A DNA stretch of 64,000 bases, taken from the IMG/VR virus record IMGVR_UViG_2778261223_000007, positions 12,132-76,131 of that record; one strand, given 5' to 3'. Positions 2,329-64,000 of this stretch are shown here, piece after piece. Numbering within the stretch: position 1 is the stretch's first letter; each line of letters starts with the position of its first letter. The stretch comes from a virus (taxonomy: Duplodnaviria > Heunggongvirae > Uroviricota > Caudoviricetes). The notes under the pieces were generated by a model. That model was not told the DNA's origin. It saw nothing but the letters and a program-made list of their open reading frames with translations, and did not search any database. A program made the translations under genes and the position numbers.

Positions 2329-3755
2329 CGATTACAGAATTACTGGACAAATTTAACGCCAAGTTAAATGAAAACACATGGTGGTCACGATTTGTAAATA
2401 GTCAGTTTGTGCAGATGCACGCTATATTCGGATCACAGCTTATTTATATTGCCCGTACATTTGCAAGCCGCGGCCTCACTGAGGGACTTATTTCAACGGC
2501 TACGCGCCGCTCAAGTATTTTAGCGGTTGCTGAAGACCGTAGCTACGTAGGGCGATTTGTTAGTGCTTCATACGGAACAACGTCTATAACCAATAAAACT
2601 GATCGGGATATTACGTTACCAGCCGGGGCTGAATTGCTTGCCAATGACCAAACACCTTTGGCAATTATTAACAGTGTTGTAATTCCTGCTGGAGGAACTG
2701 TTTCTGGCGTAGAAACTAAACAGCATGAAGCTGTTAGCGTTACATTTGATATTGAGAAGGAAACTTTATTTCTGACATTGTTGCTTTCCAGAGAATTAAC
2801 AAAAGAAGTCTCTAGCCTGGATGTTTATGTTATTACAGATGGCGTAGAAGAAAAATGGACATATAACCCATTATTTAGAATGTCCAGAGACAAGAGTAAG
2901 CACTATTCATTGGCATATAAACCTACAGAACAACTTGGAGTCAAGTTTGGTGATGGTTCTATGGGTATGATGCCTCCAGCAGGCTGTCAGGTTCGAATCG
3001 ATGTTATGGCTAGCCTTGGCGACTATACTTTGGCTGAAGGACAAAAGTTAGAACCGGCTGGAAATATCGCTCAATATGTGGAGTCACTAGAGTTTAAAAC
3101 TGATTCGATCATTACCGGTGGTAGTGGTATGGAAACTACAGAAGAAACTCGAAATCGTGCTCAGTATTATGTTGCATACGATGAACAAGTGGTATGGGGC
3201 GGTGATTATCGCCAATTCATTCAGAATGTTGTTCATGGAACTTCATGGTTGAACGTTTGGGGCGAAGCGTTGCAAGAGAAAATAACTGGGTTTGACGTTC
3301 GAAACATCAACAAGATTTTCTTTTGCGGACATAAGCCAGGTGTAAGCCAGGCTCAGCTAAAATCAGAAATACTGAAAGCTCTAGAGAATGTTCCAAATGA
3401 GTTGAACAAGCGGTTTGAGTATGTAGATACAAATGAACAACCATTTACTATAATATTTACAGGTATTGCACGTAAAAATGTTCTGATAGACGACGCTCAA
3501 AATGCTATTAAAGCAGCGTTGGAAGAAAATTTTGGTCGTGATTCGTCATCATTCAGTTTATTACTACAGAGTGATGATGATTCTCAGCAATGTTATGCAC
3601 AGGTAAAAGTTAAAGATATTTGGCGAGTAATAGAGTCGCTGGATATGTTTCTCTCTTATGACATAACAATACAAAATATGAAAGATGCAGTTTACTTTAA
3701 TGACTTCATTTATCTTGACGTGAAATCTTCAACGTTCAGCATTTCTTACCCGTAA
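2325..3755 (+). CDS. baseplate J-like protein
   Basis: 476 aa, GTG start overlapping upstream stop (translational coupling); W-J-I-fibre gene order typical of myovirus baseplate modules. Confidence 0.4.
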   Translation: MTITELLDKFNAKLNENTWWSRFVNSQFVQMHAIFGSQLIYIARTFASRGLTEGLISTATRRSSILAVAEDRSYVGRFVSASYGTTSITNKTDRDITLPAGAELLANDQTPLAIINSVVIPAGGTVSGVETKQHEAVSVTFDIEKETLFLTLLLSRELTKEVSSLDVYVITDGVEEKWTYNPLFRMSRDKSKHYSLAYKPTEQLGVKFGDGSMGMMPPAGCQVRIDVMASLGDYTLAEGQKLEPAGNIAQYVESLEFKTDSIITGGSGMETTEETRNRAQYYVAYDEQVVWGGDYRQFIQNVVHGTSWLNVWGEALQEKITGFDVRNINKIFFCGHKPGVSQAQLKSEILKALENVPNELNKRFEYVDTNEQPFTIIFTGIARKNVLIDDAQNAIKAALEENFGRDSSSFSLLLQSDDDSQQCYAQVKVKDIWRVIESLDMFLSYDITIQNMKDAVYFNDFIYLDVKSSTFSISYP

Positions 3756-5152: not shown

Positions 5153-8100
5153 TTATGGGGGCTGATAAAACGAACAACATAATGACACTATCCTCTGGTG
5201 TCTCACAGCCTTTGCTTGCTGATGTTCAATATTTCGAACTCTATAGTAGTTCGGCTCTTAACAGAAAACTTAAAAATATTGTTTTGCCTGGCTTTTACTG
5301 TGGATTTGAACCAGTTCCCGGCACAGGGTTGAGTGTTCGTATAACTTCTGAAAACTCAGAAGGTAAAGGGGCTGCTTCAGTAGATGTAAATAATGTTCAG
5401 ATATCCGTTCAGCAAATAGAAGATGTGACTGTCTCGGTAAAGGCTGGGGCTACCAACATTATTGTGCTGGAAGCCAATTTTGAACATGGTGTAAAAACGA
5501 CACAGGTAGATAGCGCATCTTCTGTCAGTGCTGCAAGAATTTACGCGCGTACGGACAATACTATTGGGCAGAATCAAATTGAATTATGTCGAGTTATCGT
5601 GCCTAACGGCGCAACGGCTGTGACTAAAGAAATGATTGTGCTTAAATACCGGGTTAACCGTGCTGTTGGTGTCGAATTCTCTAATGAAATAAGCAGTACA
5701 GAAGAAAGAAAAGCGGCTACACCTCTGGCTGTCAAAACTCTCCATGATTTGGTTGATACAAAAGCTCCGCTCGATAGTCCGCATCTGTCAGGTACGCCGA
5801 CTTCGCCGACACCTGAACCCGGTACAAACAACACACAGATCGCAAATGCGGCCTTTGTCTATGCTGCTATAAATGCGCTTATCAATGGTGCTCCGGGAAC
5901 GATGGACACGCTGAAAGAAATAGCGGCTGCGATCAATAACGACCCGAATTTCAGCACAACTATCAACAATGCCCTGGCTCTTAAAGCTCCTTTGGCAAGC
6001 CCGGCGTTCACAGGTACGCCGACAGCACCTACGGCCTCACAAGGCACAAATAGCACGCAGATTGCAAATACAGCCTTTGTTAAGGCAGCTATAACGGCAC
6101 TTATCAACGGTGCGCCTGGCACACTGGATACGCTGAAAGAAATAGCGGCTGCGATCAATAACGACCCGAATTTCAGCACAACTATCAACAATGCCCTGGC
6201 TCTCAAAGCGCCTTTGGCAAGCCCTGCATTAACGGGTGTCCCTACTGCGCCGACCGCCGCACAGGGCACAAATAATACGCAGATTGCTACGACCGCTTAT
6301 GTAAGAGCTGCCATATCCGCATTGGTTGGTTCATCACCAGAAGCTCTTGATACCCTGAATGAGCTTGCCGCAGCACTTGGCAATGACCCGAACTTTGCGA
6401 CAACAATGACAAATGCGCTGGCAGGCAAACAGCCTCTGGATGCAACTTTAACCGCGCTCGCTGGCCTTGCGACTGGTGCAAACAAACTGCCTTATTTCAC
6501 CGGTAAGGATACGGTAGCGCAGACTGATTTAACGTCAGTCGGTCGCGATATTCTGGCTAAAACAAGCACACTGGCCGTTATCCAATACCTTGGTTTAAGA
6601 GAACTCGGTACCAGTGGTGAAAAGATCCCCCTGTTGAGTACGGCTAACACATGGAGTGCGCGCCAGACTTTCAATGGCGGGATCACCGGGGCGCTGACAG
6701 GGAACGCCGACACCGCGACGAAATTGAAAACAGCCATAAACATTAATGGCGTCAGGTTCGATGGTTCGGCTGACATTAATATCAATACTCTGGTATCGCG
6801 TGGTCGCGTAACGGCTCTGGGGGCGAATGCACAGGGGACATCCGGGATTCAGCTGTATGAGGCATACAACAATGGCTATCCTTCCCCCTATGGCAATGTG
6901 CTTCACCTTAAAGGTGCCACCGCTGCTGGCGAAGGTGAATTATTCATTGGCTGGAGTGGCTCGAGCGGTGACCATGCGCCCGTACATATCCGTTCGCGGC
7001 GTGATACTGATTCTGCCAACTGGTCTGAATGGGCACAGGTCTATACGTCAAAAGATTCAGTTCCCGGCGTTAATGCCAAAGGGAATCAGGATACCTCTGG
7101 TAATGCGGCTACAGCGACCAAATTGCAGACGGCGTGTACTATCAACGGTGTCTCGTTTGATGGTTCTAAAAACATTGAGCTAACGGCGGAAGATTTAAAT
7201 CTTGAGCAAACCGTAGAATTAGCCGCAGGAGCATTGCAGAAAAACCAGAACGGTGCAGATATTCCGAATAAAGATAAATTCATACAAAACACAGGGGCCT
7301 GTCGTGCATTTAGCGGTCAGACTGATATCGATGGTTCACAAGGTGAATGGTCGACAGTTGCATTTATCTCGTGGCTGGAGAATAACGGAGCTTTCCGACA
7401 TCCATACTGGATGTGTAAAGGGTCATGGTCCTATGCCAGAAACAGGGTTATTACGGATACCGGTTGTGGAAATATCTGCCTTGCCGGAGCCGTGATTGAG
7501 GTTATGGGAACCCGCGGCGCAATGACCATACGCGTTACCACGCCGAGCACGTCCAGCGGTGGCGGAATCACTAACGCTCAATTCACTTATATTAATCATG
7601 GTGATGCTTACGCTCCTGGCTGGCGACGAGACTACAACACGAAAAACCAGCAGCCTGCATTTGCTTTAGGGCAAACAGGACGCAGGGTCGCAAATGATAA
7701 AGCTGTTGGCTGGAACTGGAATAGCGGCGTTTATGATGCAGATATCAGTGGCGCATCGACATTAATCCTCCACTTTAATATGAATGCGGGGAGTTGCCCT
7801 GCTGTACAGTTCCGCGTGAATTACAGAAATGGCGGTATCTTTTATCGTTCAGCGCGTGATGGTTATGGCTTTGAAGCTAACTGGTCAGAGTTTTACACCA
7901 CAACACGCAAACCCTCTGCGGGAGATGTTGGTGCATATACGCAGGCAGAATGTAACTCAAGGTTTATTACAGGTATTCGCCTTGGCGGTCTGTCATCTGT
8001 TAAGACATGGAATGGTCCTGGCTGGTCTGACAGGTCAGGTTATGTCGTTACTGGTTCAGTTAACGGAAACCGTGATGAATTAATTGATACAACTCAGGCA

Positions 8101-9249: not shown

Positions 9250-10854
9250 TTACACCTGTGCGACGTTATACCATGTGCCATTGATGTATTTTTGTATTGG
9301 CCTGAAGATGGCTTCATCATCGCCATCTACTTCACCAATGATTCTTAATCCGGTAATTGCGTGTCCGGCTTTTTCATAACGACCACCACGCGCCATCAAT
9401 TGAACAACACGTGTGCCAAGTCGGACATCTCTCACATAGCGTGAGTCAAAATTGCCATAATTGCCGGGAATAACTTGCGCACCACAAAGCCAGTTACCGT
9501 TATTATCCATGTACGCCTGACCATCGGTGCCATTGGCTGTCCTTGAGTTATTAATCATGTAGATGCCAAATTGCTTGTTCCCCAGTCCACCTATCATGAA
9601 CTTTCGGTCGGCGTGATTCTGGCGAAGTAACGCCTGAGCGCTATCAGTGTTAACTATATTTTTCCCAAAGATAGCGTTGTTATCGCGCATCTGAATCCAC
9701 ATACCATTACTGCTGTTAATAGCAAAACGGTCTGAAAGTGTCTCCCCTGAAACATTAAGACCACGTCCCATCGAAACAGCGCCAGTAGCGTTATTAATCC
9801 ATAATGGCCTTAATCCGTTATAAGTCCCCATGTTGTCACCGGAGTTTGTCAACATGAAGTATGTATTTGAACCATCATTACGAATAAAGAATCCGTAATT
9901 ACCATAAGCAATACGTAGGCCGTTTGCTGATTTTGATATGACTTCGCCATTTACAATGGCATTGACAAGAACATACAAAGCATCCCATTTAAGATTCATC
10001 AGGTCTTTTGTTGTGGTACTTTGTTTGCTTCTCCATTTGAAATATTCATTGCCGTTGTCGCCTGTCTCAAACCACATGTATGAATCAGTATCGCTGTCGG
10101 CATCATTTTTAAAACCAATCTTCGCCCAGTCAGTATTCCGAATCCAGGCAAGGATTGAGTCGTTTTCAAAAGTAAGTCCACCGGACAAGGTATCGCCTGT
10201 CTTTTGAACCGCGTTATCAGCCTTGTTTACCGTTTCCTGTAGATTTAAATCTTCCGCCGTTAGCTCAATATTTTTAGAACCGTCAAACGAGACGCCGTTG
10301 ATAGTACATGCTATCTGCAATTTGGTCGCTGTAGCCGCATTACCAGAGGTGTCCTGATTCCCTTTAGCATTGACGCCGGGAACTGAATCTTTTGACGTAT
10401 AGATCTGTGCCCACTCGGACCATGCCGCAGCAGTGCTATCTCTTTTGGATCGAATGAAAGCAGGTGCATGAGCGCCATTTGTGCCACTCCAGCCAATGAA
10501 TAACTCACCTTCGCCAGCAGCGGTGGCACCTTTAAGGTGAAGCACATTGCCATAGGGGGAAGGGTAGCCATTGTTGTATGCCTCATACATCTGCAATCCA
10601 GTAGCAGCACCTTGCGTTGTACCGGTAAGCGCAGTAACGCGTCCTCTAGACGTAATTGTTGGTATCGAAATGTTCGTAGAACCATCGAACCTGACGCCAT
10701 TAATGTTTATGGCTGTTTTTAATTTCGTCGCGGTATCGGCGTTCCCTGTCAGCGCCCCGGTGATCCCGCCGTTGAAAGTCTGGCGTGCACTCCACGTGTT
10801 AGCCGTGCTCAACAGGGGGATCTTTTCACCGCTGGTACCGAGTTCTCTTAAACC
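9250..10854 (-). CDS. alternative tail fibre variable cassette Sv' (expressed only after inversion, no own promoter)
   Basis: Minus-strand frame is open from cixR to 9250; its first ~60 codons are identical to residues following the crossover point in S (STANTWSARQTFNGGITGALTGNADTATKLK...). Confidence 0.75.
   Translation of the reverse strand, partial: GLRELGTSGEKIPLLSTANTWSARQTFNGGITGALTGNADTATKLKTAININGVRFDGSTNISIPTITSRGRVTALTGTTQGAATGLQMYEAYNNGYPSPYGNVLHLKGATAAGEGELFIGWSGTNGAHAPAFIRSKRDSTAAAWSEWAQIYTSKDSVPGVNAKGNQDTSGNAATATKLQIACTINGVSFDGSKNIELTAEDLNLQETVNKADNAVQKTGDTLSGGLTFENDSILAWIRNTDWAKIGFKNDADSDTDSYMWFETGDNGNEYFKWRSKQSTTTKDLMNLKWDALYVLVNAIVNGEVISKSANGLRIAYGNYGFFIRNDGSNTYFMLTNSGDNMGTYNGLRPLWINNATGAVSMGRGLNVSGETLSDRFAINSSNGMWIQMRDNNAIFGKNIVNTDSAQALLRQNHADRKFMIGGLGNKQFGIYMINNSRTANGTDGQAYMDNNGNWLCGAQVIPGNYGNFDSRYVRDVRLGTRVVQLMARGGRYEKAGHAITGLRIIGEVDGDDEAIFRPIQKYINGTWYNVAQV
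10679..10854. repeat. inverted repeat, right arm (~176 bp)
   Basis: See left arm. Confidence 0.8.
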
Positions 10855-12908: not shown

Positions 12909-14838
12909 CAATCCTTTACGAATTAATATTCAGTCTACTTTTGCTGATACGATCCCCGGCTATATGCCAAGTCGCTGGTCTTCAGAAGAATTAAGCGAAG
13001 ATGACCTGATTTTTGAGGCGGCGACCTTAGAAGATATTGAGCTTGCCTATATGGGCAATGAAATTCTGGTTGTGTCTGACGAAGCTATGTTTGAGTCCAT
13101 AACTACAACCAGAATTCGGTTAGCTCAAACAATGCGAGCTTTCGTCCGTGCGCTGAATCGTGGCCTGAATGGTACGAATATTATGGCAGGGACTGATGAA
13201 GCTGGGACCGATGAAAATGGACGTAATTGTATTGGTGGTGCGATTATCGGTCGTGTACGTCGGGTAGCTAATATCCCCGTTTTGACCGCGCAGATACCGC
13301 TTACTGACGGGCAGAGTACAAGCATAATTTTCCACTCTCCAACAGCTGACGGGGCAAAAATAAAGAGTAACGACGAGCTTGTTGCATTTCAGTTTTTACT
13401 TAATAAGCGTAACGTAACTCACGTTGTCGCCCCGATTGGTGGGAGAGATGTTTCTTTAAACCAGGTATGCCAGGCGCTATCTAATTTGATTGAGCGTAAC
13501 AGCGAAAAATTTAAGAAAGCAAAAGAGCGCCAGGACAAAATGAAGGCAGATATTGAGAGTTATCTCAATGAAGCAGATAAACTGGCAGAAGAACGGTCAA
13601 TAATGATTGATCAGGTGGAAGTTGCGCAACGAGGGCTGACTGAAAAGCGTGCTGCTCTTACGGAGATGCAAAAAAAACTTGATTCCCAGAAAGCCATCAA
13701 CGAGGAATTACAAGCAAAACGCGATAAATTGTTGTCTGCTAAAGGTGAAAAAACGAAAGAACGAGCGTTTAGTGACCAGCTGCGACATGTAAAACATAAT
13801 CTTGCCATTGACGGAAAAACAGTGCTGGATAATGGCGCTGAAGTTAATTATGTCACGTCCGGCAGTGATAATTTCGTTACGATAGTAGCACCTGAAGGTA
13901 AATTCAGTATTGATGCCAGTGCTGTCAAAGGAGGCAGTTTGGCAGATGCTGCAACCAAATTACTTAAAGCCTACCGAGAGCATAACGCAGATAAATATAA
14001 AGTTGATGTGTTACCAGGCCAGCAGGAAGACCCCGAACCACCACAGACAGACCCCGAGACGAACCCAGTATCACAACCAGAGAGCCAGGATGTAGGTAAA
14101 TACCACTATGCACTTCAATCTCGCCCGGCTGGTGTTGGTGCTGTGCCGGATGGAAATAAAGCCGTGCTTGATCGTCCTGACCAGGCTGATCAGTATTACG
14201 AATATGCTCGTCACGGTATCATTACGTATGACCGTAAACTGACAGATGAAGAAGTCAGCCAGTACGAGTTGCTCTATCTTCCTGATGAAGATGAGCTGAA
14301 AGATTTTGCAGGCCAATTGGTTGTGTCCAGCATGTCGAAACATATTGATGGCTATGTAGACCTGTTTGGCAGTGACCTGAAAACATTCAAGGCGCAAGTG
14401 AAAATTCTTTTCCGCAAAGCGTTTCCAAACGTGGCGTATCCACTTGGTGATGGGGAGAACCTTTTCATTATGGACGTATATAACGCCCTTCAAAATCATT
14501 CAAACGAAGTAACGCCAGAGCCTGAATTAGCACCTGTAGTTGAGCCAGAATCACACCCACAAACAGCACCAGAGCAACAGCCAACGCCGGAAGACGCTGA
14601 AGAAGCGGCAACTGAAGCTGATCAGGAAGCAGATAAAGCGTTGGAGTACCTTAAATCCGTCCCGGTGCAGTTTACATCTCGCGATCTGACGGTAATCAGT
14701 GCCGAACTTGACCATGTGCAGGAAGCTGCAAACGCTCTTATCAGTGCTGGTCGATACGACGAGAACGAATCAACGGTTGGCGCAGCAGTTGACTACCTGA
14801 TCAACATTCTGGCTGAAATTCAGCAGGGAGGTGCTTAA
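12901..14838 (+). CDS. darA: DarA-like head-associated antirestriction protein (candidate)
   Basis: ~646 aa from the ATG at 12901 (GGAGG 7 nt upstream); size and operon position match P1 DarA as I recall; Pro/Glu-rich linkers. Homology not verified. Confidence 0.4.
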   Translation: MINNPLRINIQSTFADTIPGYMPSRWSSEELSEDDLIFEAATLEDIELAYMGNEILVVSDEAMFESITTTRIRLAQTMRAFVRALNRGLNGTNIMAGTDEAGTDENGRNCIGGAIIGRVRRVANIPVLTAQIPLTDGQSTSIIFHSPTADGAKIKSNDELVAFQFLLNKRNVTHVVAPIGGRDVSLNQVCQALSNLIERNSEKFKKAKERQDKMKADIESYLNEADKLAEERSIMIDQVEVAQRGLTEKRAALTEMQKKLDSQKAINEELQAKRDKLLSAKGEKTKERAFSDQLRHVKHNLAIDGKTVLDNGAEVNYVTSGSDNFVTIVAPEGKFSIDASAVKGGSLADAATKLLKAYREHNADKYKVDVLPGQQEDPEPPQTDPETNPVSQPESQDVGKYHYALQSRPAGVGAVPDGNKAVLDRPDQADQYYEYARHGIITYDRKLTDEEVSQYELLYLPDEDELKDFAGQLVVSSMSKHIDGYVDLFGSDLKTFKAQVKILFRKAFPNVAYPLGDGENLFIMDVYNALQNHSNEVTPEPELAPVVEPESHPQTAPEQQPTPEDAEEAATEADQEADKALEYLKSVPVQFTSRDLTVISAELDHVQEAANALISAGRYDENESTVGAAVDYLINILAEIQQGGA

Positions 14839-54973: not shown

Positions 54974-55251
54974 TGTGGTGGCTCCTGCTTTTCTGCCTTT
55001 AATACCATGCGAGAACCATCATCCAGCTCCCAATTAATTTCACCGCCTTCAGCCATGACTAGATGCCAAACGAGTTGTGCGGCCTCGTTGGTTACATCAC
55101 GACCGCGATCATTGCCGACACGACGTTTTGTTCCATCCCCTAAGTCACGCATTTTTGCCAACACGATGGTTTTTGATAGCGGTGAAAAACCAAGCTGTAG
55201 TCGTGCGGTATTACTCACTGTTTGCCTCCTTTGCGAAGCTGTTCCGCCCAT
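54970..55251 (-). CDS. hypothetical protein (start uncertain)
   Basis: 93 aa open frame; no clear RBS. Confidence 0.25.
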   Translation of the reverse strand: MGGTASQRRQTVSNTARLQLGFSPLSKTIVLAKMRDLGDGTKRRVGNDRGRDVTNEAAQLVWHLVMAEGGEINWELDDGSRMVLKAEKQEPPQ

Positions 55252-55703
55252 TCTTCAAGGGATTTCTCCGCATATTCACCGGACAGGCCATCAATCGGGT
55301 GCGGTTCATTAGCCAACTCTTCTTTCGCTGACAGAATCATGCGCGTAACGTCGAAAACTTCACGTAAAGACTTATTGATAAATCCGTGGTTGAAAGCAGC
55401 AGCAAGACGGCTTGCGGTATAGTTAATCCCCTCGTTGCGAGCCGCCGCACGAATTTCAGCCAGAAAAGCATCGGTGGCTGGAGTTTCGCTGTGGTGCAGG
55501 GCATCGTTGATAATCATTGCAGCAACTCCGGCCTGACCTGCATCCGTGACCGACACATGCTCAAGAGTTACAGCCATTGCATGTTTCAGCCCAGCATTCT
55601 CCGCCGCCAGCGCAGCACACGCTTTCTCAAGTCGGGAAATTTCCGTTACATACTCAGCGTTACGCTCTGCCAGTTGTGCGGGCGTTAAACCTTCAGACTT
55701 CAT
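55215..55703 (-). CDS. hypothetical protein
   Basis: 162 aa. Confidence 0.4.
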   Translation of the reverse strand: MKSEGLTPAQLAERNAEYVTEISRLEKACAALAAENAGLKHAMAVTLEHVSVTDAGQAGVAAMIINDALHHSETPATDAFLAEIRAAARNEGINYTASRLAAAFNHGFINKSLREVFDVTRMILSAKEELANEPHPIDGLSGEYAEKSLEEWAEQLRKGGKQ

Positions 55704-56010
55704 ACACTCTCCTTTCGAAATAAACGTACTGATTAATCATGCCTAGGGGCATTTCGAGTTTTTCCGCGATCTCACGGCGGGGAACACCACACCGATGAAG
55801 CTGCCGTGCCAGTTCTATATCGCCCTGCCGGTATTTGGCTGACGGGTGAAAGTCTCCTTTCAGAATCATGCAGATCCGCAGTTGCCGCGCTTTGGTTCTG
55901 ACAGCACTACCGGTACGCCCGATCAGCCTCCCAATACTCTCGACTGTCATAGTCCCGGCGCACTGGCGGAGTATCATGATTTCTGCCCTTCCCCATCCCC
56001 GCCAGCTCAC
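55693..56010 (-). CDS. putative HTH DNA-binding protein
   Basis: 105 aa; two HTH-like stretches (ESIGRLIGRTGSAVRTKARQL; RREIAEKLEMPLGMINQYV). Confidence 0.35.
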   Translation of the reverse strand: MSWRGWGRAEIMILRQCAGTMTVESIGRLIGRTGSAVRTKARQLRICMILKGDFHPSAKYRQGDIELARQLHRCGVPRREIAEKLEMPLGMINQYVYFERRVYEV

Positions 56011-56618
56011 GCAGAACTCCTTCTAACCAAAAGCACGCCATCTTCAGAAACAACGTTGCAGGACTTCAGGTAATTCATTGCCTCTTTCGGTAATGGATTC
56101 TTTGGATCGGCGTTTGCCAGGGATTTCGATAACCTCATGATAAATTTGATCATTACCTTCTGGCGGAGCTTGTGCTCATGAGATAAAGACAGGTAATAGG
56201 AAATGGTATGGGCTAAACGCTCACGAAGCTGTTCTGTGCCGTGATATACAGCAGCGATATCACACAGTGCATTGACCAGTTCCCGGTAAATATGCGGAGC
56301 AACCTGGCATTCAATGTTGGTTGGTGACTCATAAATTACAGTCAGCCCCAGCTTTTCAGCCAGCGCGTGCTCTGCACGAGCACCAATCGATTCCTCCCAT
56401 CGATTGAGCAAGTAGATCGCATCAGCAGAACGCACCATTGCCAGGCAAATATCCATGTATTCACTCTGACAAAGGCCACCAGGTAACACAGCTGGATTCA
56501 GAACGATATGCCCTTCAGCCATCAGCTCGCTCGCTTTCGCATTAAACGCAGCACGGTTGTAATCTGGATAACCAGTCATCGGCCCCGCGATGTAAATTTT
56601 CAAAACACGTTTCACCAT
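56007..56618 (-). CDS. DUF4406-like protein (nucleoside 2-deoxyribosyltransferase-like fold)
   Basis: IYIAGPMTGYPDYN motif; start set at MVKR, which overlaps (TGATG) the stop of the upstream small ORF. Confidence 0.45.
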   Translation of the reverse strand: MVKRVLKIYIAGPMTGYPDYNRAAFNAKASELMAEGHIVLNPAVLPGGLCQSEYMDICLAMVRSADAIYLLNRWEESIGARAEHALAEKLGLTVIYESPTNIECQVAPHIYRELVNALCDIAAVYHGTEQLRERLAHTISYYLSLSHEHKLRQKVMIKFIMRLSKSLANADPKNPLPKEAMNYLKSCNVVSEDGVLLVRRSSA

Positions 56619-56773
56619 CAAAATTTCCCCAAAATCGTGACGCAAAACATAAGCACTGCGAAAAGCTCAATACCAAGCTCAAGTAGCGCCAACGCCCCGA
56701 AAAACAACACATAGAACAGGCCAATCTCATTCACAGATGGCTGGTGGATCGCACTTAAAGCTATAAGCATCAT
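56618..56773 (-). CDS. small hydrophobic protein
   Basis: 51 aa, GGAGG RBS, coupled to downstream gene; not in ORF track (below 60 aa). Confidence 0.35.
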   Translation of the reverse strand: MMLIALSAIHQPSVNEIGLFYVLFFGALALLELGIELFAVLMFCVTILGKF

Positions 56774-56810
56774 GTCCTCCAAACAGTTATCAGGAATGAT
56801 ATTAATGTTT

Positions 56811-56829
56811 TGTGTTAGAAAATCAATTT
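56811..56829 (-). promoter_or_regulatory. operator-like motif (rc AAATTGATTTTCTAACACA)
   Basis: Motif family member; in the divergent region between 56773 (minus) and ref (plus). Confidence 0.5.
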
Positions 56830-56890
56830 TGAATATCTAATCATTTTGATCAATCATAGAAAAATCGCTGAAAAGTAAGAGGCAGCCATC

Positions 56891-57469
56891 ATGCAGAAAC
56901 AGAGCTATTGGGAGAAACAGAGACAAAAAGCCATGCAAAAATTGGCTGACCCAGCCTGGCGAGAGGAACAAAGGGCAAAGTGCCTTCAACAAGCTCAACG
57001 CCAGCAGCAGCGAGCGAGAGAAAAAGCCGCATCGCCTGAATATCGGCAAAAGAAAATTGAAAAAGCAAAGCAATATGAACAGCGGAGAAAAGATAAAGCT
57101 GTATCCGCTCCGTCCAAAAAAACACGCACGTCACGCGGCCTGAAAGGCAGATCACTCACAGCCGATGAACGCCGGATACAGACCGCTATCGGTGCTCTCC
57201 CCTGCATTGCCTGCCATATTCACGGGCAACATAGCCCAGTGGTATCCCTGCACCATATCTTCGGGAGAACGGCAGAGAACGCGCATAAATATGTCCTCCC
57301 TTTGTGTAAATGGCACCACCAGTACGCAGCGCCAGCCGAGGTCCGAGAACAATATCCCTGGCTGGTCCCTGTTCATGCTGACGGAAAAATAGGCGGAAAA
57401 GCAGATTTCATGCGGCACAATGCCGATGAAATGACGTTGTATCAGATGGCGATTGAATTGATAAATTAG
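56891..57469 (+). CDS. ref: HNH endonuclease, Ref-like (recombination enhancement function)
   Basis: 192 aa; basic N-terminus, then ALPCIACHIHG...SLHHIFGRT...LPLCKWHHQ HNH core and the AAPAEVREQYPWLVPVHADG block that I recall from P1 Ref; flanked by operator-like motifs. Confidence 0.7.
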   Translation: MQKQSYWEKQRQKAMQKLADPAWREEQRAKCLQQAQRQQQRAREKAASPEYRQKKIEKAKQYEQRRKDKAVSAPSKKTRTSRGLKGRSLTADERRIQTAIGALPCIACHIHGQHSPVVSLHHIFGRTAENAHKYVLPLCKWHHQYAAPAEVREQYPWLVPVHADGKIGGKADFMRHNADEMTLYQMAIELIN

Positions 57470-57480
57470 TTTTCTAACAT
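57463..57480 (+). promoter_or_regulatory. operator-like motif AAATTAGTTTTCTAACAT
   Basis: Motif family member; overlaps the ref stop. Confidence 0.5.
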
Positions 57481-57800
57481 TTTAAGTTGAATTGTAAATT
57501 TCTCCGATGTACATTCACTACCGATTGGCACACCGGTCAACTTTTTGAGACAAACTGTTTAGTTTTTCGTATTATTGCCGCCGCTATACCTATGGCGGTG
57601 CAATATAGGTGGCTGAAAAGCCCCCGTTGACTCACGGTGTTCCAGCCTTTATTGCGCCGCCACCAGACCGTGGAACAGTCGATGGCGGCTCCGAAAGCAA
57701 GGAGTCACTACACTATGAACAGCTACTGTCTTTTCCCATCACTCGTTGTCCGCCACTCACGCGATAATCTGCATTCTTTACTCGCGCTGGGGGTGTCAAA

Positions 57801-57968
57801 ATGACCGTTCGTTACCTCAACTTTCAAATCCAGAACATCACTGGCGGTTGCTATGACTGGTTTGTCACTCTCGGAAAAGAAGTGATCACCGGGAAGCTGG
57901 ATGAAGTGAAAACTAAAGCAATGGCCTACGCCTGCAAGCAAGCCCGGAAGAAATCCGCCAAAGCATAA
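57801..57968 (+). CDS. small ORF (candidate)
   Basis: 55 aa, GGGGG RBS; followed by terminator at 58073..58094. Confidence 0.25.
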   Translation: MTVRYLNFQIQNITGGCYDWFVTLGKEVITGKLDEVKTKAMAYACKQARKKSAKA

Positions 57969-58072
57969 AATACTGACTGTTGCGCCCTGGCATTATCGTG
58001 GGGTATATTTCTACGGCACCTTAGAAAAACGGGTGCCGGGATTGGAACCCCGGATAATGTCAAAGGCGACAC

Positions 58073-58094
58073 AGACGCCGAAAGCGTCTTTTTT
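58073..58094 (+). terminator. rho-independent terminator
   Basis: GACGC-CGAAA-GCGTC followed by TTTTTT. Confidence 0.6.
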
Positions 58095-58139
58095 GTGTCA
58101 TGCCATCGCACAGCCATACGTAGCGTTTAGCTCAGAGAT

Positions 58140-58270
58140 CAATGGTAGTGCTGGCTGGGCTGCCGAAAGGCAGGCCGGTTCCCTTTGACGCCGGTAGTTC
58201 CAACCCAGTCAGTGCTACCGCCATTGAGATTGGAACCTCACGCGGTAGCTCCTTAACTTAGTCAAAGGAG
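58140..58270 (+). ncRNA. candidate c4-like antisense RNA region of immI-like module 2
   Basis: CCTTTGAC at 58182..58189 is complementary to GTCAAAGG at 58261..58268, which overlaps the AAGGAGG RBS of the icd-like ORF; further pairs GTTCCAA/TTGGAAC and GGTAGTGCTG/CAGTGCTACC (with G-U pairs). Confidence 0.25.
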
Positions 58271-58279
58271 GCTGCCAAT

Positions 58280-58495
58280 ATGGCTACTATCCCTACCCCA
58301 ACTCATTCTGAATTTATCTGGCGTTTCTATTCCTGCCAAAAACACCTGTATATCTGCGTCATGGCTGCTACCGAAGCAGAGGCGCGCTCATACCTTCCCG
58401 AAGAACCCTGCATTTTTGCTGCTCGCTTCACTCTTGATGCGATGGAGATCCTCAATTACTGGAATCTGCCGATGAACTGCGTGGAGGCGCACTGA
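58280..58495 (+). CDS. Icd-like small protein (immI-like module 2)
   Basis: 71 aa paralog of 22087..22311; AAGGAGG RBS; stop overlaps antirepressor start. Confidence 0.5.
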   Translation: MATIPTPTHSEFIWRFYSCQKHLYICVMAATEAEARSYLPEEPCIFAARFTLDAMEILNYWNLPMNCVEAH

Positions 58496-59421
58496 TGAAT
58501 CTGTCCATCTCTCAAAAAGCGACAATGACCAGCATTGAGATCGCGGAACTGGTAGGTAAGCGCCCTGATAACGTTAAACGCACCATTGAACACCTGGCGG
58601 AACGGGGCGTAATATCTTTTCCTCAAATTGAGGAAAAGCCCACCGCAGGCCGCCCGGCGAGCTATTACGTCTTTGAAGGCGAACAAGGCAAGCGTGACAG
58701 TATCATTGTCGTCGCACAGCTTTCTCCCGAATTTACCGCCCGGCTGGTGGACCGCTGGCGCGAACTGGAGAATGCCCGGGTACAGTTAAAATCAAAAGCC
58801 GAAATCCTGGCTGAAATGGCGCAAATGCATCTTGAGCATGAACGCCGGATCAACGCCGTTAATGCCCAGGTAGCCGAAGTATCGGCACAAGTGTCCAAAG
58901 TCGCTGAAACCGTCGAGCAAATCAAGAAAGGCAATATTCCGGAAGGCTACATTGGCTACCGCCAGCTGGCGGCGAAATGTGGCCTGACTGAAGCCAAATG
59001 CCGAAACCTGGTTAACGCTTACCGGATTCCCACCGATACGCATGAGTTTTTAACTCCCGATGGTTTGCTTGCGCAACGCTCCATTGTGGCCCTGGCCCCC
59101 TTCCGGAAAGCCTTTAAGCAGGTGATGTCGGAGGCAGAACCACGCAATAAACGCTGGTATCATCCAAAGATGGGGATGTTTCAGGCAATCCACCATCCTG
59201 TGCCTGAAAGTCCAAAGGCAAACCTGTCGTTGCATACCGCCAGAGAGAGGATTAAAACAGGCTATGCAATCGTATGCCGTCGAGCATCCTGGCCTGAAGG
59301 TGTATGGGTGTGGCCCGAAGGTGGATCACGAAAGCACTGGCGCACTATCCGGGATGGGAAAATCCATGCGATTGATTTAGCTCCAGAGGATGTTGTTGCT
59401 ACGGACTGGATTGTTAGTTAA
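58495..59421 (+). CDS. antirepressor: Rha-family N-terminal domain fused to DUF2829-like C-terminal domain
   Basis: 308 aa; N-terminus MTSIEIAELVGKRPDNVKRTIE; C-terminus YAIVCRRASW...DLAPEDVVATDWIVS corresponds to the separate ORF 23015..23215 of module 1. Confidence 0.6.
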   Translation: MNLSISQKATMTSIEIAELVGKRPDNVKRTIEHLAERGVISFPQIEEKPTAGRPASYYVFEGEQGKRDSIIVVAQLSPEFTARLVDRWRELENARVQLKSKAEILAEMAQMHLEHERRINAVNAQVAEVSAQVSKVAETVEQIKKGNIPEGYIGYRQLAAKCGLTEAKCRNLVNAYRIPTDTHEFLTPDGLLAQRSIVALAPFRKAFKQVMSEAEPRNKRWYHPKMGMFQAIHHPVPESPKANLSLHTARERIKTGYAIVCRRASWPEGVWVWPEGGSRKHWRTIRDGKIHAIDLAPEDVVATDWIVS

Positions 59422-59480
59422 TTACTGTTGCCCCGGCCTGTCCGGGGCTTTAACTACTAAATAACCGGATTCTCCGCACG

Positions 59481-59765
59481 ATGAAGAAAATAGATTTCAC
59501 TTACTCTGCTGCCACAATCCAGCGACGTTTCAGTCTCATAAGGGAAGTGGAACTATCAAAAAACTGCTATCAAATTCTACTGGATGAAGAGTTTTCACTG
59601 ATGGTTATAGCAGAAAAATTGGCTATGCCGAATGACCGGCACAAGGTCATAGCCAGCCTGGATCTGGTGACAAACAGATACTGGGAATACGAGGAACTAC
59701 TTGAAGTTGGCTTGATACGCGAGATGATAGAACAGGCTGTTCCCCTCCACTTACAGCAACCATAA
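59481..59765 (+). CDS. hypothetical protein
   Basis: 94 aa. Confidence 0.35.
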   Translation: MKKIDFTYSAATIQRRFSLIREVELSKNCYQILLDEEFSLMVIAEKLAMPNDRHKVIASLDLVTNRYWEYEELLEVGLIREMIEQAVPLHLQQP

Positions 59766-59901
59766 TTGAAAGATCTTAACGATAGTCTGCCACGAATAGT
59801 TACTTCCACTGCCTAAAGTTATTTAATTGCATTACAAAGTGTAAATTAGTAACATTAGAATCTCACACAGCACTATAACTATATGTTTTTTATGTAAAAG
59901 G

Positions 59902-60261
59902 ATGATAATCGTGGCTACTAAAATTAAACTTGAAAACCCTCAAACTGGCGAATCAATCACCGGTTTTTATGGTTTTTCCTGGACTACATTCTTGTTTGGT
60001 GCTTTTCCAGCTTTGTTCAGGAAAGACTTTATAACTTTTATTGGGGTATTTGTAGTGATGCTGATACTGGCATTCCTCACAGCCGGAATTGGCCCGTGGA
60101 TTGCCTCATTTATCTGGGCGTTCATGTATAATAAATATTTCACCGTAAATAAGATAAAACAAGGCTTCATTTTTGCTGGTTCTCACACAGAAAATGAGTT
60201 GGCTGCTAGCAAGCTAGGATTGTCATTAAATCAAAACAACTGCAAAACTATTACCGAGTAA
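59902..60261 (+). CDS. small inner-membrane protein (candidate superinfection-exclusion-type moron)
   Basis: 119 aa with 2-3 hydrophobic helices; AT-rich surroundings. Confidence 0.4.
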   Translation: MIIVATKIKLENPQTGESITGFYGFSWTTFLFGAFPALFRKDFITFIGVFVVMLILAFLTAGIGPWIASFIWAFMYNKYFTVNKIKQGFIFAGSHTENELAASKLGLSLNQNNCKTITE

Positions 60262-60300
60262 AGCCAAAAAGCAGGCTTAATAGTAAGCCTGCTATGTCAA

Positions 60301-61134
60301 TCACGAATCTCTCTGACAATTCAGAAACATAAACGCCCGCTTGTCTGTTAAATCCGTAACATAATACTCTCTCATGCCTGTAGGTTTTATTCTACGAGCA
60401 TATACAAACTTATGAACTGGTTGTTTTTCCCCATAACTTACATCAGTCCTAAATTCATCAACCACGCTACCATCTTTTTCAGTTTCCTTTCTCACTAGCT
60501 GATTTTCTAATACAGGCTTTGATTCGTCCATGCCACTAAAAGCATCCTGACCTGTGCTGTTGCCTCGGTTTCCGCGTGGCAAATCCCATGAAAAATAAGT
60601 GCCATAGTCAGTAATCACACGATCCCATGTTCCGGAATCCCCCATATAGTTAGAACGCTCCCCCTTGTAAGTTACAGCCACCTTACAGGCATACGTTTCA
60701 CCATTATTTTTTTTATCATGTCCAGCCATGCTTGCAGGAGTTGCAGGGGAATTATGAATAGATGCGCTTACATCATCTTGCGTTAATTTCTCAACTGGAG
60801 CAAATTCATATATGGGTGTGCCGAGGCTATTTAAATATAACTTATATCTAACCCTAAGCGCACTTCCATCTGAGAATTCATACGTTCCCAGGCATTGGAG
60901 CTTATTGTTTTCTCTTATCTCATTGATCTGATTATAAGCATCAATTACAGAGATTGCTTCCTGCTCGTCCTTCAGCAGTTCATTATAATCATCGATTAAC
61001 ATCTGCCTAGTTTTAGGGGAATTGCAGTCAATTTTGCTAAAATCATAAGCAAAGGTGAGTGTGGGAACAAAAAGAGCAACAACAGTAGCTAGTATTGTTG
61101 AGGAAAATCTTTTTCCATTTTTTATAAAAAACAT
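60301..61134 (-). CDS. secreted protein / putative lipoprotein, hypothetical
   Basis: 277 aa from ATG with GGAG RBS; signal-peptide-like N-terminus; AT-rich gene. Confidence 0.4.
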   Translation of the reverse strand: MFFIKNGKRFSSTILATVVALFVPTLTFAYDFSKIDCNSPKTRQMLIDDYNELLKDEQEAISVIDAYNQINEIRENNKLQCLGTYEFSDGSALRVRYKLYLNSLGTPIYEFAPVEKLTQDDVSASIHNSPATPASMAGHDKKNNGETYACKVAVTYKGERSNYMGDSGTWDRVITDYGTYFSWDLPRGNRGNSTGQDAFSGMDESKPVLENQLVRKETEKDGSVVDEFRTDVSYGEKQPVHKFVYARRIKPTGMREYYVTDLTDKRAFMFLNCQRDS

Positions 61135-61427
61135 TTCATTAACTCCATACCTTACCATCTTAGCCGCGAGCGCGGTCCCTAAAACCATTAACTTCACTGC
61201 ACCGTCCTTCATGCAATCAAAATGACTTTTATGTTATAAAAATAATCAGCCAAATCAACATGATTTAGGCCAAATTTCTGTCAAAAAATAAAATCCACAA
61301 AAAGTGGTTGACACTATTTTGGAAATCACAAACTGCACATAATCCATCGCGCTAACGGCTCCCGTTGAAGGTTCTTTTGACGATTAACTTTCAGCCGAAG
61401 CGCGGTAGGGAGTCATAACGCCAAAGC

Positions 61428-61452
61428 AGGCCGCCATGTGCGGCCTTTTTTT
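61428..61452 (+). terminator. rho-independent terminator
   Basis: AGGCCGC-CATGT-GCGGCCT followed by TTTTTTT; no plus-strand CDS directly upstream. Confidence 0.55.
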
Positions 61453-61479
61453 GTATCCGTCATCCGTGGAGGAAGGACA

Positions 61480-62133
61480 ATGGAAAAGATCGCAATATTC
61501 AGCCTGACCACCAGCAAGCCTCAAATGCTCACTGCAATACTGAAAGACGGTGCTCTCATTATTAACGAAGTAAAACCCCTTCCCGCGTCAGCATTGGAGC
61601 AAAAGCAAAAAATTCCTCCAGCTATAGCAGCCCTGCGGAAAAGCAAATTTAAGGTACTGGTAGACGAAATTACGCCAACGATCTCCGCTGGCACCGGAGC
61701 AAGCCAGGTGACTCTCAAGACCCGTCATGCCGATGGCAGAGCAGCAATCATCGTCGGGATGGAAAGATACAGAGAGTTAAAACTCCAGAAGCTATTATCC
61801 CTGCCGCAAAATAACAAAGGTGCTTTCGAAATCCCTGACTCCATCGTTGACACCGAATACAACGGTAACGGAGAAGAAGTCTACCGGGTGAACTGGCAGG
61901 ATATCAGGCCGGAGCATATTTTGATGATCCTGTGTTGCTACGCGACCGTATACCACAATGTTGCCAGTGCGGATTACGTAGAGCAGATGACCGGTACAGT
62001 CGAGAAAGAGCAAAAAACAGGCATACTCGCTTCGTTCCTGTCCATTATTGGGCATGAAAAAGTTAAAGCAGGCACCTCCCAGCCAAAGTCACTGACTGGG
62101 AAAGAAGTTGATGAAGATACCGTGATACTTTGA
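61480..62133 (+). CDS. hypothetical protein
   Basis: 217 aa from ATG with GGAGGAAGG RBS; the longer frame from 61438 would begin inside a terminator hairpin. Confidence 0.45.
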   Translation: MEKIAIFSLTTSKPQMLTAILKDGALIINEVKPLPASALEQKQKIPPAIAALRKSKFKVLVDEITPTISAGTGASQVTLKTRHADGRAAIIVGMERYRELKLQKLLSLPQNNKGAFEIPDSIVDTEYNGNGEEVYRVNWQDIRPEHILMILCCYATVYHNVASADYVEQMTGTVEKEQKTGILASFLSIIGHEKVKAGTSQPKSLTGKEVDEDTVIL

Positions 62134-62461
62134 TCACATTAGTAGCTTTGTTAACTCCCTCAATACCAGGTAGAAGAGTAACAAAAATATTGACGCCAGT
62201 ATTTGCGTGGTCAATGAAGCGTTCATAAACAGATCAATTAGCATTAATAATTCGAAGATAACATCCATGTCATTCACTCCGTTTAATTTTTAATCTAATG
62301 CCAGCAAATGAAGCTGGCCCCCGCATAAAGATTAATGAAAGTCACTTGTCACCAGTGAGGGGATTTATGAACCACATCCCCCTGAACTGGTGGCCTGTCT
62401 GTTTCTCGCATTTCACACCCTGCATACAGTTTCCCCCAGGTTATGACTGAGAGGCTTTGTT

Positions 62462-62791
62462 ATGGGCTATAGCAGACTCGACGATAGGTACATTGAAGAC
62501 GATATTTTTCGTGCGCTGTTTCACCAGGAAATGATTAAGCGGGTATCGGAGTATCACTCTGATAATTTCCAGTACACGATAAAGATTGATGAAGTATATC
62601 GTTCAGACCTTGCAGCCTACCGGGCGTATGGCAATGCAGATTTGCGCTGGGTATTCCGGGTGCTGGTGGGCCATGAGTCAGAAATGGAAGAAATGCCCGC
62701 CGGGACCACGTTAACTCTTCCTGATGTGGCATGGCTGAGGAACAAGATCCGTGATTACGCGAGCGCGGAACCGGAGATAGAAAATGCCTGA
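62462..62791 (+). CDS. hypothetical protein
   Basis: 109 aa; overlaps downstream gene start. Confidence 0.4.
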   Translation: MGYSRLDDRYIEDDIFRALFHQEMIKRVSEYHSDNFQYTIKIDEVYRSDLAAYRAYGNADLRWVFRVLVGHESEMEEMPAGTTLTLPDVAWLRNKIRDYASAEPEIENA

Positions 62792-63926
62792 TTTCCTGAA
62801 AAACCAGGACGGGCGCTATATCACTGACGGCCTGTCCTCTAAGGACTTCACGCGTTTATTCGACCTTATCAGGAAAGAACAAACCCGTAAGCGCCGACAA
62901 GCTCACCGGACGCTGACGCCAGGTAGACTGAGGAACAAATCCGCCGAAGATATTCTCAAGTTAGGGAAGAAAAAAGGCGGCACGTTCTTCACGCGAGACG
63001 ACCTGAAAGGTTTCGAAAAGCTACGGAGTAAAACACGCGAAAAATATGACAGCAAGACGGCTGGCATCACATACGCCCAGCTGGTGGCATCCAGCCAGGC
63101 AATCGATATTAAGCGTGCAAATAACGCCGTGGATGACGGATCTGGTATCAAAAGAGCTACACCCGTATCTCTTCGCCACAACGTGATTAATATCCGCGTA
63201 GAAGCATCGAATATATCCGTCCACCAGCACCATATCGTCCGGATACGCTTTGAAGAATGGGATCAGATGGTCGATGACATCGCAGAAGACGATAAATCAG
63301 CTCTGAAAATCACTAAATCACTGTGCGCCGGGCGGGTGTCTTTCGATTGTGACTGTGGTCGTCATCAATACTGGTATCGTTACATCGCTACTGCGGGTAA
63401 CTTTGCCCTGGCCCCGCCAAAAGAATACGCCTATCCAAAAGTTCGTAACCCTAAGCTACAAGGCGTCGCCTGTAAACACGTGATCCACTCAATGACGCGG
63501 TTACAGTCCGCCAGTTGGCAAATGAGTATTGCTCGTGCGTTACAAAAGGCTGCAACGCAAATTGCATTTGGTGACGATCGCCGCCGTACAACCAAACACT
63601 TCTCAAAAGAAGACGAGAGGGAGTTTAATCGCAATCGCAACAGTAAAACAAACGTTGACGCTGCCAAGCGCGAATGGAGGCTCTATCAGAAGCGCCAGGC
63701 AGCTTTAAGTACAAAACTGGCAAAGGACAACGGCAAGATCGACAAGCTACGTGACCAATTGACCAGGGCCAGAAAGTTGTCAGACGCACAGAAAAAACGG
63801 GCGGCTGCAAAAGAAGCGGCCTTGCAACGAGAGAAACAGAAAAACAAGGAGCTTCAGCAACGCCTTGCCGATCAGTTCGCACTGAAGAAGCAGGCGTTCA
63901 TTGATGCGCTTGTCATGGCAGGATGA
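62784..63926 (+). CDS. hypothetical protein with basic coiled-coil C-terminus
   Basis: 380 aa. Confidence 0.45.
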   Translation: MPDFLKNQDGRYITDGLSSKDFTRLFDLIRKEQTRKRRQAHRTLTPGRLRNKSAEDILKLGKKKGGTFFTRDDLKGFEKLRSKTREKYDSKTAGITYAQLVASSQAIDIKRANNAVDDGSGIKRATPVSLRHNVINIRVEASNISVHQHHIVRIRFEEWDQMVDDIAEDDKSALKITKSLCAGRVSFDCDCGRHQYWYRYIATAGNFALAPPKEYAYPKVRNPKLQGVACKHVIHSMTRLQSASWQMSIARALQKAATQIAFGDDRRRTTKHFSKEDEREFNRNRNSKTNVDAAKREWRLYQKRQAALSTKLAKDNGKIDKLRDQLTRARKLSDAQKKRAAAKEAALQREKQKNKELQQRLADQFALKKQAFIDALVMAG

Positions 63927-64000
63927 ACCGCCCCGGAAATCCTGGAGACTAAACTCCCTGAGAAAGAGGTAAACAGGATGACTAAAAATACTCGTTTTTC

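Follow-up and report, generated by a model that had tools for sequence, protein, structure and literature searches.

The DNA analysed here, referred to as the window, comprises 64 000 nucleotides (nt; positions 12 132 to 76 131) of the IMG/VR virus record IMGVR_UViG_2778261223_000007, a member of the Caudoviricetes. Our subject is the interval 59902-61479, which holds two open reading frames (ORFs), orf80 and orf79, followed by an intergenic region that ends in a terminator-like hairpin just before mat, the homologue of the P1 maturation control gene. The 2.5 kb around this interval are 99.6% identical, in reverse orientation, to Escherichia phage D6, which identifies the window by its sequence as a D6-like plasmid prophage of the P1 family; the intergenic part has a 100% match in the Salmonella plasmid pYU39_89 (CP011430). 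In window order the D6 annotation reads icd, anti-repressor, a pmgF-like gene, orf80 (hypothetical), orf79 (on the opposite strand, 'similar to P1 simB') and orf78 ('similar to P1 mat'), and the two AT-rich ORFs of the window match D6 orf80 and orf79, which had been annotated already. The GC content falls to 33-44% over 59750-61400, with about 50% on either side, and an immI-type module adjoins the interval (C4 RNA, then icd, ant and the pmgF-like gene), both as a first-pass annotation of the window had described. That annotation had also called the two ORFs a divergent pair; both are real, as is the terminator it reported, but they are convergent, tail to tail, with a common bidirectional terminator at 60270-60293, and the true divergent pair is orf79 and mat. 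We consider it rather probable that the interval combines two unrelated things, an exchangeable cargo cassette and a regulatory leader of mat.

The features of mat and its leader are as follows.
61308..61343, plus strand: promoter-like region of the mat leader (TTGACA at 61308-61313, ACAAAC box at 61328-61333, -10 hexamer CATAAT at 61338-61343)
61357..61414, plus strand: structured domain of the mat leader (closing-stem covariation, covariance model)
61357-61363 and 61408-61414, plus strand: closing stem (covariation, RNAalifold)
61366-61393, plus strand: predicted hairpin 1, whose loop carries the invariant UUUUGAC(R)A
61394-61406, plus strand: predicted hairpin 2, with the invariant GCGCGG
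61428..61452, plus strand: predicted intrinsic terminator of the mat leader (AGGCCGC-CATGT-GCGGCCT, then seven T)
61480..62133, plus strand: mat (orf78), maturation control protein homologue, 217 residues, Shine-Dalgarno sequence GGAGG at 61468-61472

The hairpin at 61428-61452 has, in sequence and in conservation, the characteristics of an intrinsic (Rho-independent) terminator. It consists of a 7 bp stem with six GC pairs, a 5-nt loop and seven T residues (hairpin energy -13.1 kcal/mol), and the corresponding tail on the minus strand is GCTTTGG, so that it would work in the plus direction only. The first-pass annotation had noted a strong terminator here with no plus-strand coding sequence upstream, and indeed none lies between 60261 and the hairpin. 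The stem and loop change between relatives (AGGCCGC and CATGT in D6, AGCCGC and CTTTGA in the Enterobacter type, GGGGCCGC and AATC in the Klebsiella type, GGGCCGC and CTCGT in locus L168, AGCCGCC and GCT in P1), and each of these is followed by a T-run; that of the L119 type is interrupted (TTTCGCCTTTT). The Enterobacter, Klebsiella, L112/L113, L119, L168 and P1 types thus keep the terminator although its stem and loop bases have changed. A terminator scan of the region gave eight terminator-like sites against 2.5 expected.

The 345 bp intergenic region is present in 121 plasmid records. In an alignment of six diverged copies the segment from about 61345 to 61455 is nearly invariant, beyond the conservation of the start of mat itself. 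At loci collected through Mat homology, a recognisable leader precedes Mat proteins of 50-56% identity (Klebsiella type, L112, L113, L119 type and L168), and its arrangement is kept wherever the leader type occurs, P1 included. The distance from the T-run to the mat ATG is 27 nt in the window and about 25-30 nt in every leader version. No -35/-10 pair lies between the terminator and the mat ATG in the D6, Klebsiella and P1 types; because this stretch leaves no space for a promoter, mat would be expressed by read-through. In several relatives the baseplate genes 26/25 follow directly after mat. A search of 55000-64000 with Rfam 15 (cmscan, E ≤ 1) returned nothing in 61300-61460, the matches being confined to C4, isrK and c4-a1b1 in the immI region, and no mention of a mat leader was found in the searchable literature.

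Upstream of the leader, the TTGACA box reported by the first-pass annotation is present at 61308-61313; the accompanying statement that it lacks a good -10 did not hold, CATAAT being found at 61338-61343. The two are separated by 24 nt in the window and by 24-26 nt across the relatives, a spacing too wide for a standard -35/-10 pair. All leader versions carry the ACAAAC box, then 4 nt and a hexamer of the form TAnnnT or nAnnnT (CATAAT, CAAAAT, CATTAT, TAAAAT, TAAAGT, TACAGT, TATTGT or AATACT), and most have a TTGAC box upstream of the hexamer, the Enterobacter type being without it. ACAAAC-type boxes are not enriched elsewhere in the window (four matches; 11 of 100 shuffles did as well). The predicted leader RNA runs from about 61350 to about 61452 and is thus roughly 100 nt long. 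A small RNA (sRNA) of about 120 nt had been suggested earlier; a short transcript ending at 61452 is still predicted, shorter than proposed and preferably read as a cis-acting leader of mat. Two other promoters were considered and discarded. TTGACG at 61377, inside the leader, has no -10 at any workable spacing, and the box of a P1-type Lpa late promoter is not there at D6 mat, though it occurs elsewhere in the window. One such Lpa motif, AAGTGACTT-TCAT-TAATCT, lies at about 62320-62346 on the minus strand, between mat and gene 26; its box is identical to that of P1 LPmat and it points to a small hydrophobic ORF (62277..62134), antisense into mat. A similar motif occurs at about 3699 on the plus strand.

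The leader is also conserved as a structure. When each leader is folded by itself, those of D6, Enterobacter, Klebsiella, L112 and P1 adopt the same architecture, in which a closing stem of 7-10 bp surrounds a hairpin with a large U-rich loop and a short second hairpin, and the terminator comes after a linker. A covariance model built for the 58-nt domain matches exactly one place in the window (61357-61414, 90.7 bits) and also recovers the other leader types, except that of P1; extra copies of the motif before other operons were rejected, a search of the 64 kb with filters off giving the single copy. When the whole proposed structure is taken, 86% of cells pair, compared with 36-54% for slid partners, and five pairs are changed on both sides, against 0-1 in the slid controls. 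For the closing stem alone the figures are 94% and 14-56%, its outermost pair is seen as G-C, U-A and C-G, and RNAalifold recovers this stem independently. The comparison identifies a structured leader domain with a closing stem supported by covariation. Within it the motifs UUUUGAC(R)A and GCGCGG do not vary in sequence, and this suggests that they are recognised by something. A further possible helix, alternative or pseudoknot-like, joins GCGCU (61349-61353) to AGCGC (61399-61403) and would compete with hairpin 2. It shows a co-change to GCGCA/UGCGC (U-A to A-U) in the L006 group; GCGC is palindromic, the helix is broken in the L008, L015 and Klebsiella types, and it is sterically incompatible with the closing stem.

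The leader of P1 itself bears on the annotation of that phage. The order in P1 is the C1 operator Omat, TTGACA, the late promoter LPmat, a stretch of about 110 nt, a GC hairpin with a T-run, GGGGG and an ATG, and the P1 leader has the same fold as the D6 type with no sequence similarity to it. The P1 terminator lies inside the annotated mat coding sequence (2716..3468 in the reference NC_005856), which starts 37 codons upstream of the ATG at 2827 and passes through the terminator hairpin. The segment concerned is as follows.
NC_005856 2716..2826 (1317-1427 of locus L009): annotated 5' end of P1 mat, across the terminator (from the sequence)
The ATG at 2827 (MDKKICVVS) aligns flush with all other Mat N-termini and is probably the real start of P1 mat. 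The annotated upstream ATG is out of frame in 16 of the 28 P1-type loci, with insertions and deletions in the G- and T-runs; because of this, and because the short Mat aligns flush, the P1 stretch appears to be a non-coding leader too.

These observations lead us to favour, with somewhat better than even confidence and jointly with the cargo reading given below, the view that the leader is a cis-acting transcription attenuator of mat. The segment 61308-61479 would comprise a promoter and a structured 5' leader of roughly 100 nt. Transcription would start near 61350, the closing stem of the RNA would enclose the invariant motifs, and polymerase would then meet the strong terminator 27 nt before the mat ATG. 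Most transcripts would end as the short RNA, and mat, with genes 26/25 in several relatives, would be reached only by read-through, regulated by a factor that recognises the leader or modifies polymerase and not by an RNA switch. Attenuation is what we infer; the position, the conservation, the covariation of the closing stem and the lack of a downstream promoter site are observed. A riboswitch-like antiterminator was rejected. No alternative pairing common to the leader groups was found, and nascent leaders of the D6, Enterobacter and P1 types folded without the 3' arm leave the 5' arm unpaired. Since there is no conserved antiterminator pairing, any control of read-through would fall to a factor.

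Several observations weigh against an attenuator. The most distant Mat loci, those of E. kobei and Vibrio, have no such leader or terminator, and for that reason the leader is not strictly required by mat. The D6-type promoter has neither a usable -35 nor the Lpa box of P1 LPmat, and the start of transcription, the efficiency of termination and the control of read-through are all predictions. On the structural side, RNAalifold does not recover the inner hairpins as a cross-group consensus, the closing stem of L113 contains an AA/AA mismatch, and the minimum-energy folds of L113 and L119 differ. The pair counts given above come from a model-fitted alignment with only 8-9 distinct sequences from few lineages.

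Going further, the leader may belong to an unrecognised class of phage cis-regulatory RNA common to P1, D6 and Klebsiella-type prophages, its motifs being bound by a factor (for example Mat or a lytic-stage regulator) or acting on polymerase so that the terminator is switched off; morphogenesis genes of the P1 family would thereby come under a second, post-initiation checkpoint, and the terminated RNA of about 100 nt might have a role in trans besides. We advance this tentatively and think it rather doubtful. A little less likely still, in our estimation, is that the element is a free-standing gene for a trans-acting sRNA of about 100 nt, with the loop UUUUGAC(R)A as its seed and mat expressed from terminator leakage. 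Its own conserved -10 and its strong terminator with a 7-U tail are typical of Hfq-type sRNAs, yet no U-rich stretch precedes the terminator, and the element always lies directly upstream of mat, which has no promoter of its own, even where Mat is 34-56% identical. Invariant single-stranded motifs among variable stems would suit a seed. Pairing of the loop with the C4 'b' target GUCAAAGG, at the ribosome-binding site of icd, is possible with one G-U pair, but the P1 leader loop resembles that of D6 and not the P1 C4 b' sequence (UCACUAAC). No target in trans above chance was found within the window: the lone perfect 10-mer complement, in two inverted-repeat coding copies, is at about the level expected by chance and is not convincing, and a scan that allowed G-U pairs was discarded as too permissive. 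An sRNA role would nevertheless be compatible with attenuation, as terminated leaders can act in trans too.

It is also conceivable, and in our view distinctly unlikely, that the hairpin is an insulator or constitutive damper that blocks transcription arriving from upstream (from ref in P1 and Klebsiella-type elements, from immI or the cargo in D6) and fixes mat at a low level, the conserved sequences being DNA sites such as operators or promoter elements. In its favour, P1, the Klebsiella-type elements and the Vibrio elements have the ref gene upstream in the orientation of mat; in the D6-like arrangement, however, the upstream gene runs on the other strand and orf80 is self-terminated, which leaves little to insulate, and the element is still almost invariant, while ref of Vibrio lies 70 nt from mat with no terminator. 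The failure to find an antiterminator alternative, the C1 operator (Omat) just upstream in P1, and the invariance of TTTTGAC and GCGCGG next to inner hairpins that lack cross-group support would all suit DNA sites. Against this, the compensatory changes in the closing stem make sense only at the RNA level, and P1 holds the fold with an unrelated sequence.

The remainder of the interval is occupied by the cargo genes, whose features, with those of the adjoining terminator and immI RNA, are as follows.
58138-58225: C4 antisense RNA just upstream of icd (Rfam match, RF01695)
59911..60261, plus strand: orf80 (D6 orf80), small membrane protein, 116 residues, GTG start (the longest ORF runs from ATG 59902)
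60270-60293, both strands: bidirectional intrinsic terminator common to the convergent orf80 and orf79, AGCAGGCTTACTATTAAGCCTGCT between an A-run and a T-run
60301..61134, minus strand: orf79 (D6 orf79, 'simB-like'), secreted protein, 277 residues, with signal peptide, SimB-like domain and C-domain
60304-60702, minus strand: conserved all-beta C-domain of orf79, residues ~145-277, carrying the motif YFSWDLPRGNRGNSTGQD and one Cys close to either end
between the C-domain and the SimB-like domain, minus strand: linker of orf79, of low confidence in the model
60793-61044, minus strand: SimB-like cystatin/NTF2-like roll of orf79, residues 31-114, 52% identical to SimB
61048-61134, minus strand: signal peptide of orf79, residues 1-29, MFFIKNGKRFSSTILATVVALFVPTLTFA
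61135..61212, minus strand: in-frame upstream extension of orf79, containing the D6 start GTG 61197, with no Shine-Dalgarno sequence

With the same confidence as for the leader, with which it forms one joint reading, we regard 59902-61134 as one version of a horizontally exchanged AT-rich cargo cassette. In D6-like plasmid prophages the variable slot lies between the immI/pmgF genes and mat. The orf80 and orf79 cassette is found in 56 plasmid records, against 121 for the adjoining leader, and the pairing of the two genes is not conserved outside the cassette. At locus L004 the C-domain of orf79 stands behind a different N-domain, at L168 an orf79 relative stands behind an extra gene, and at L005 the slot holds an unrelated 277-residue secreted protein, the halves of which are two separate secreted proteins in L006, L007 and L008. 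This alternative cargo appears as a two-module secreted system (L005 1497-2330; L006 1519-2693; L007/L008 1457-2543), one 277-residue fusion in Enterobacter and split in two in plasmids of E. coli, Shigella and E. fergusonii; its proteins have no Pfam or PADLOC matches. The stretch VKLMVLGTALAAKM of the orf79 extension has its homologue in the start of the signal peptide of the L007/L008 alternative cargo, and we interpret the extension as a remnant of the 5' end of an ancestral cargo gene, marking a cassette-swap junction. That junction lies inside the region coding for the signal peptide (61165-61212 of the window, minus strand; about 2480-2543 in L007/L008), and the promoter, the 5' untranslated region and the first ~15 cargo codons are common to plasmids whose cargo proteins are otherwise unrelated.

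The start of orf79 at 61134 has GGAG 8 nt upstream of the ATG and places the signal peptide MFFIKNGKRFSSTILATVVALFVPTLTFA, already noticed in the first-pass annotation, at the N-terminus, and the match to a 276-position PHROG profile runs the full length of the protein, residues 1-277; by these signals it is a better start than the longer D6 call at GTG 61197. Residues 31-114 align with the whole of mature P1 SimB (52% identity over 84 residues, E 3e-26). Over the other ~160 residues neither BLASTP nor a fold search against viral structures gives any similarity to SimC, a SimB-SimC fusion thus being ruled out by sequence and fold, and tblastn finds neither simA nor simC in the window. In an alignment of 11 database relatives the C-terminal domain is conserved and the N-terminal domain exchangeable. 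An exhaustive search of 1.84 billion proteins with the C-domain alone gave no more than 12 representatives, each of which has a signal peptide; they have the motif [YF]F.[YW]D..HGNRGDSTG in common and a Cys near each end of the domain, which is found alone or behind different N-domains.

Like orf79, P1 SimB has a signal peptide and is encoded near the immI (c4-icd-ant) module. It is, however, a single-domain protein of ~111 residues within simA-simB-simC next to c4, with a gene divergent from c4, whereas orf79 has 277 residues in two domains, including the additional C-terminal ~160 residues unrelated to SimC, and its gene lies downstream of ant/pmgF and divergent from mat. P1 SimB (sim region ORF1) is annotated as a 'putative superimmunity accessory function', and it is SimC, of which the window holds no homologue, that is annotated as the superimmunity protein. 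The plasmid pYU39_89 carries simB without simA or simC, and the vicinity of simB is replaced in a sister plasmid (PMC6799933). A CRISPR interference study cites the literature for mat being essential and lists the sim genes as non-essential.

The start of orf80 is more likely GTG 59911 than ATG 59902, judging by the AAGGA at the right distance, the family consensus start MAT.I and the use of the same start in D6. The AlphaFold (AF2) model of orf80 (predicted local distance difference test 92) has an N-terminal beta-hairpin, two to three hydrophobic helices and a C-terminal helix, with predicted transmembrane helices at residues 43-59 and 63-86 and a hydrophobic segment before them; together with a Kyte-Doolittle hydrophobic stretch at residues 37-74, this bears out the membrane protein proposed by the first-pass annotation at 59902..60261. 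The protein matches PHROG 4915. Its homologues number in the hundreds and are found in chromosomes of Enterobacterales and of beta- and alpha-proteobacteria and in Rak2-like jumbo phages such as 121Q; a Cedecea homologue (69% identical) is a stand-alone gene amid metabolic genes. Some source databases (UniRef) name some of the homologues 'DUF2628'. Among DUF2628-type proteins orf80 is 60-73% identical to Enterobacterales chromosomal members, it is 54-57% identical to jumbo-phage proteins such as 'HrgC' p492 of 121Q, and both groups have the motif GFSWttFlFG.FPaLfR.D in common with it; the difference is that no Pfam family matches orf80 at E ≤ 0.1, the DUF2628 model included. The Pfam, NCBIfam and PADLOC libraries likewise gave no match to it. 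To our knowledge no DUF2628-type or HrgC protein has a known function, and in the comparisons made here nothing appears to link the family to phage exclusion.

As products, orf80 would be a small inner-membrane protein and orf79 a periplasmic two-domain protein, encoded convergently, and an envelope function expressed in the lysogen, such as exclusion by blocking the entry of phage DNA, is a reasonable inference for the cargo. The first-pass annotation had placed the pair in the region where P1-type phages carry superinfection-exclusion functions. The SimB-like domain of orf79 and the other secreted cassettes in the slot agree with this; the lack of a SimC homologue, the accessory and putative status of SimB and the family of orf80 do not. 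An exclusion role for orf79 is plausible from its similarity to SimB. That orf80 and orf79 form a dedicated two-component exclusion system, a membrane anchor with a periplasmic effector, we hold to be improbable. The two occur together in all 56 cassette-bearing plasmid records, but their convergent genes form separate transcription units, relatives of orf79 stand without orf80 in L004 and L168, and orf80 homologues stand alone in many Proteobacteria chromosomes and occur in jumbo phages with no orf79 partner. A periplasmic orf79 with a SimB-like domain, in a slot always occupied by secreted proteins, would suit an effector; SimB has no demonstrated function, SimC was not found, and the PADLOC defence models match neither orf80, orf79 and Mat nor the alternative cargo proteins.

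Some further elements were seen outside the interval. Directly upstream of C4 lies an Rfam match to isrK, an Hfq-binding sRNA (58016-58094, 62.7 bits), and a second C4-like element at 57588-57667, which at 40.2 bits falls short of the gathering score of 45, suggests that an immI RNA module has been duplicated or has degenerated. The sequence GTCAAAGGAG at 13921-13930 on the plus strand fuses a C4 'b' target to a Shine-Dalgarno sequence, as at the start of icd (58262-58271), and is a possible additional C4 target. The 16-mer CTATACGTCAAAAGAT occurs at 7041-7056 (plus) and 10387-10402 (minus), identical and inverted, 3.3 kb apart; the pair may mark an invertible segment like the tail-fibre region of P1. 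Ten nt within this 16-mer are perfectly complementary to the mat leader loop, which is probably fortuitous.

P1 is heavily used in genetics, and little is understood of how its 'maturation control' gene mat is regulated. Were the leader a true attenuator, it would give the P1 family a further level of control on top of C1 repression and Lpa activation. The leader would qualify as a candidate for a new RNA family, with hundreds of carriers among the plasmids of Escherichia, Salmonella, Shigella, Klebsiella and Enterobacter, and if it holds for P1 the mat annotation (NC_005856, 2716..3468) would need shortening by 37 codons. Of lesser weight, the cargo part defines a rare secreted domain and a hot spot for swaps of secreted cassettes in D6-like prophages.

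Late transcription in the P1 family uses the activator Lpa with host SspA, and the closest parallels to the mat leader come from other phages and from the immunity RNA of P1 itself. In lambda, the pR' promoter gives a short transcript (6S RNA, ~100-200 nt) that ends at the strong terminator tR' before the late genes, which are reached through antitermination by Q. The mat leader would have the same succession of promoter, short transcript, terminator and downstream genes that need read-through; no Q-like antiterminator or qut-type site was identified for it, and lambda 6S RNA has no counterpart of its covarying closing stem and invariant internal motifs. The whole late region lies downstream in lambda, whereas here it is only mat, with genes 26/25 in some relatives. 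The put RNAs of HK022 are cis-acting antiterminator RNAs and, like the mat leader, are promoter-proximal, with two adjacent stem-loops of ~60-70 nt, and lie upstream of terminators in phage operons. Unlike the mat leader they have no enclosing stem and act on distant terminators, and if a put-like action were constitutive, the terminator next to the leader would serve no purpose.

The C4 antisense RNA of P1 and P7 is likewise a small structured RNA in which a long closing stem surrounds two hairpins, and within the same phage the D6 leader loop GGUUCUUUUGACG and the C4 loop GGUUCCCUUUGACG are alike. The order of the hairpins differs, however, and the Rfam C4 model does not match the leader even at E ≤ 1. 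C4 RNA is processed from a precursor, whereas the leader ends in a terminator of its own. A leader acting as a C4 mimic or target was rejected: because the P1 leader loop is unlike P1 C4 (a' CUGUCAA, b' UCACUAAC), the loop does not track immunity specificity, and the resemblance in D6 is probably coincidental. The ORFs are ordinary and were annotated before, and the terminator credibly belongs to an unannotated, conserved cis-regulatory leader of a known general kind.

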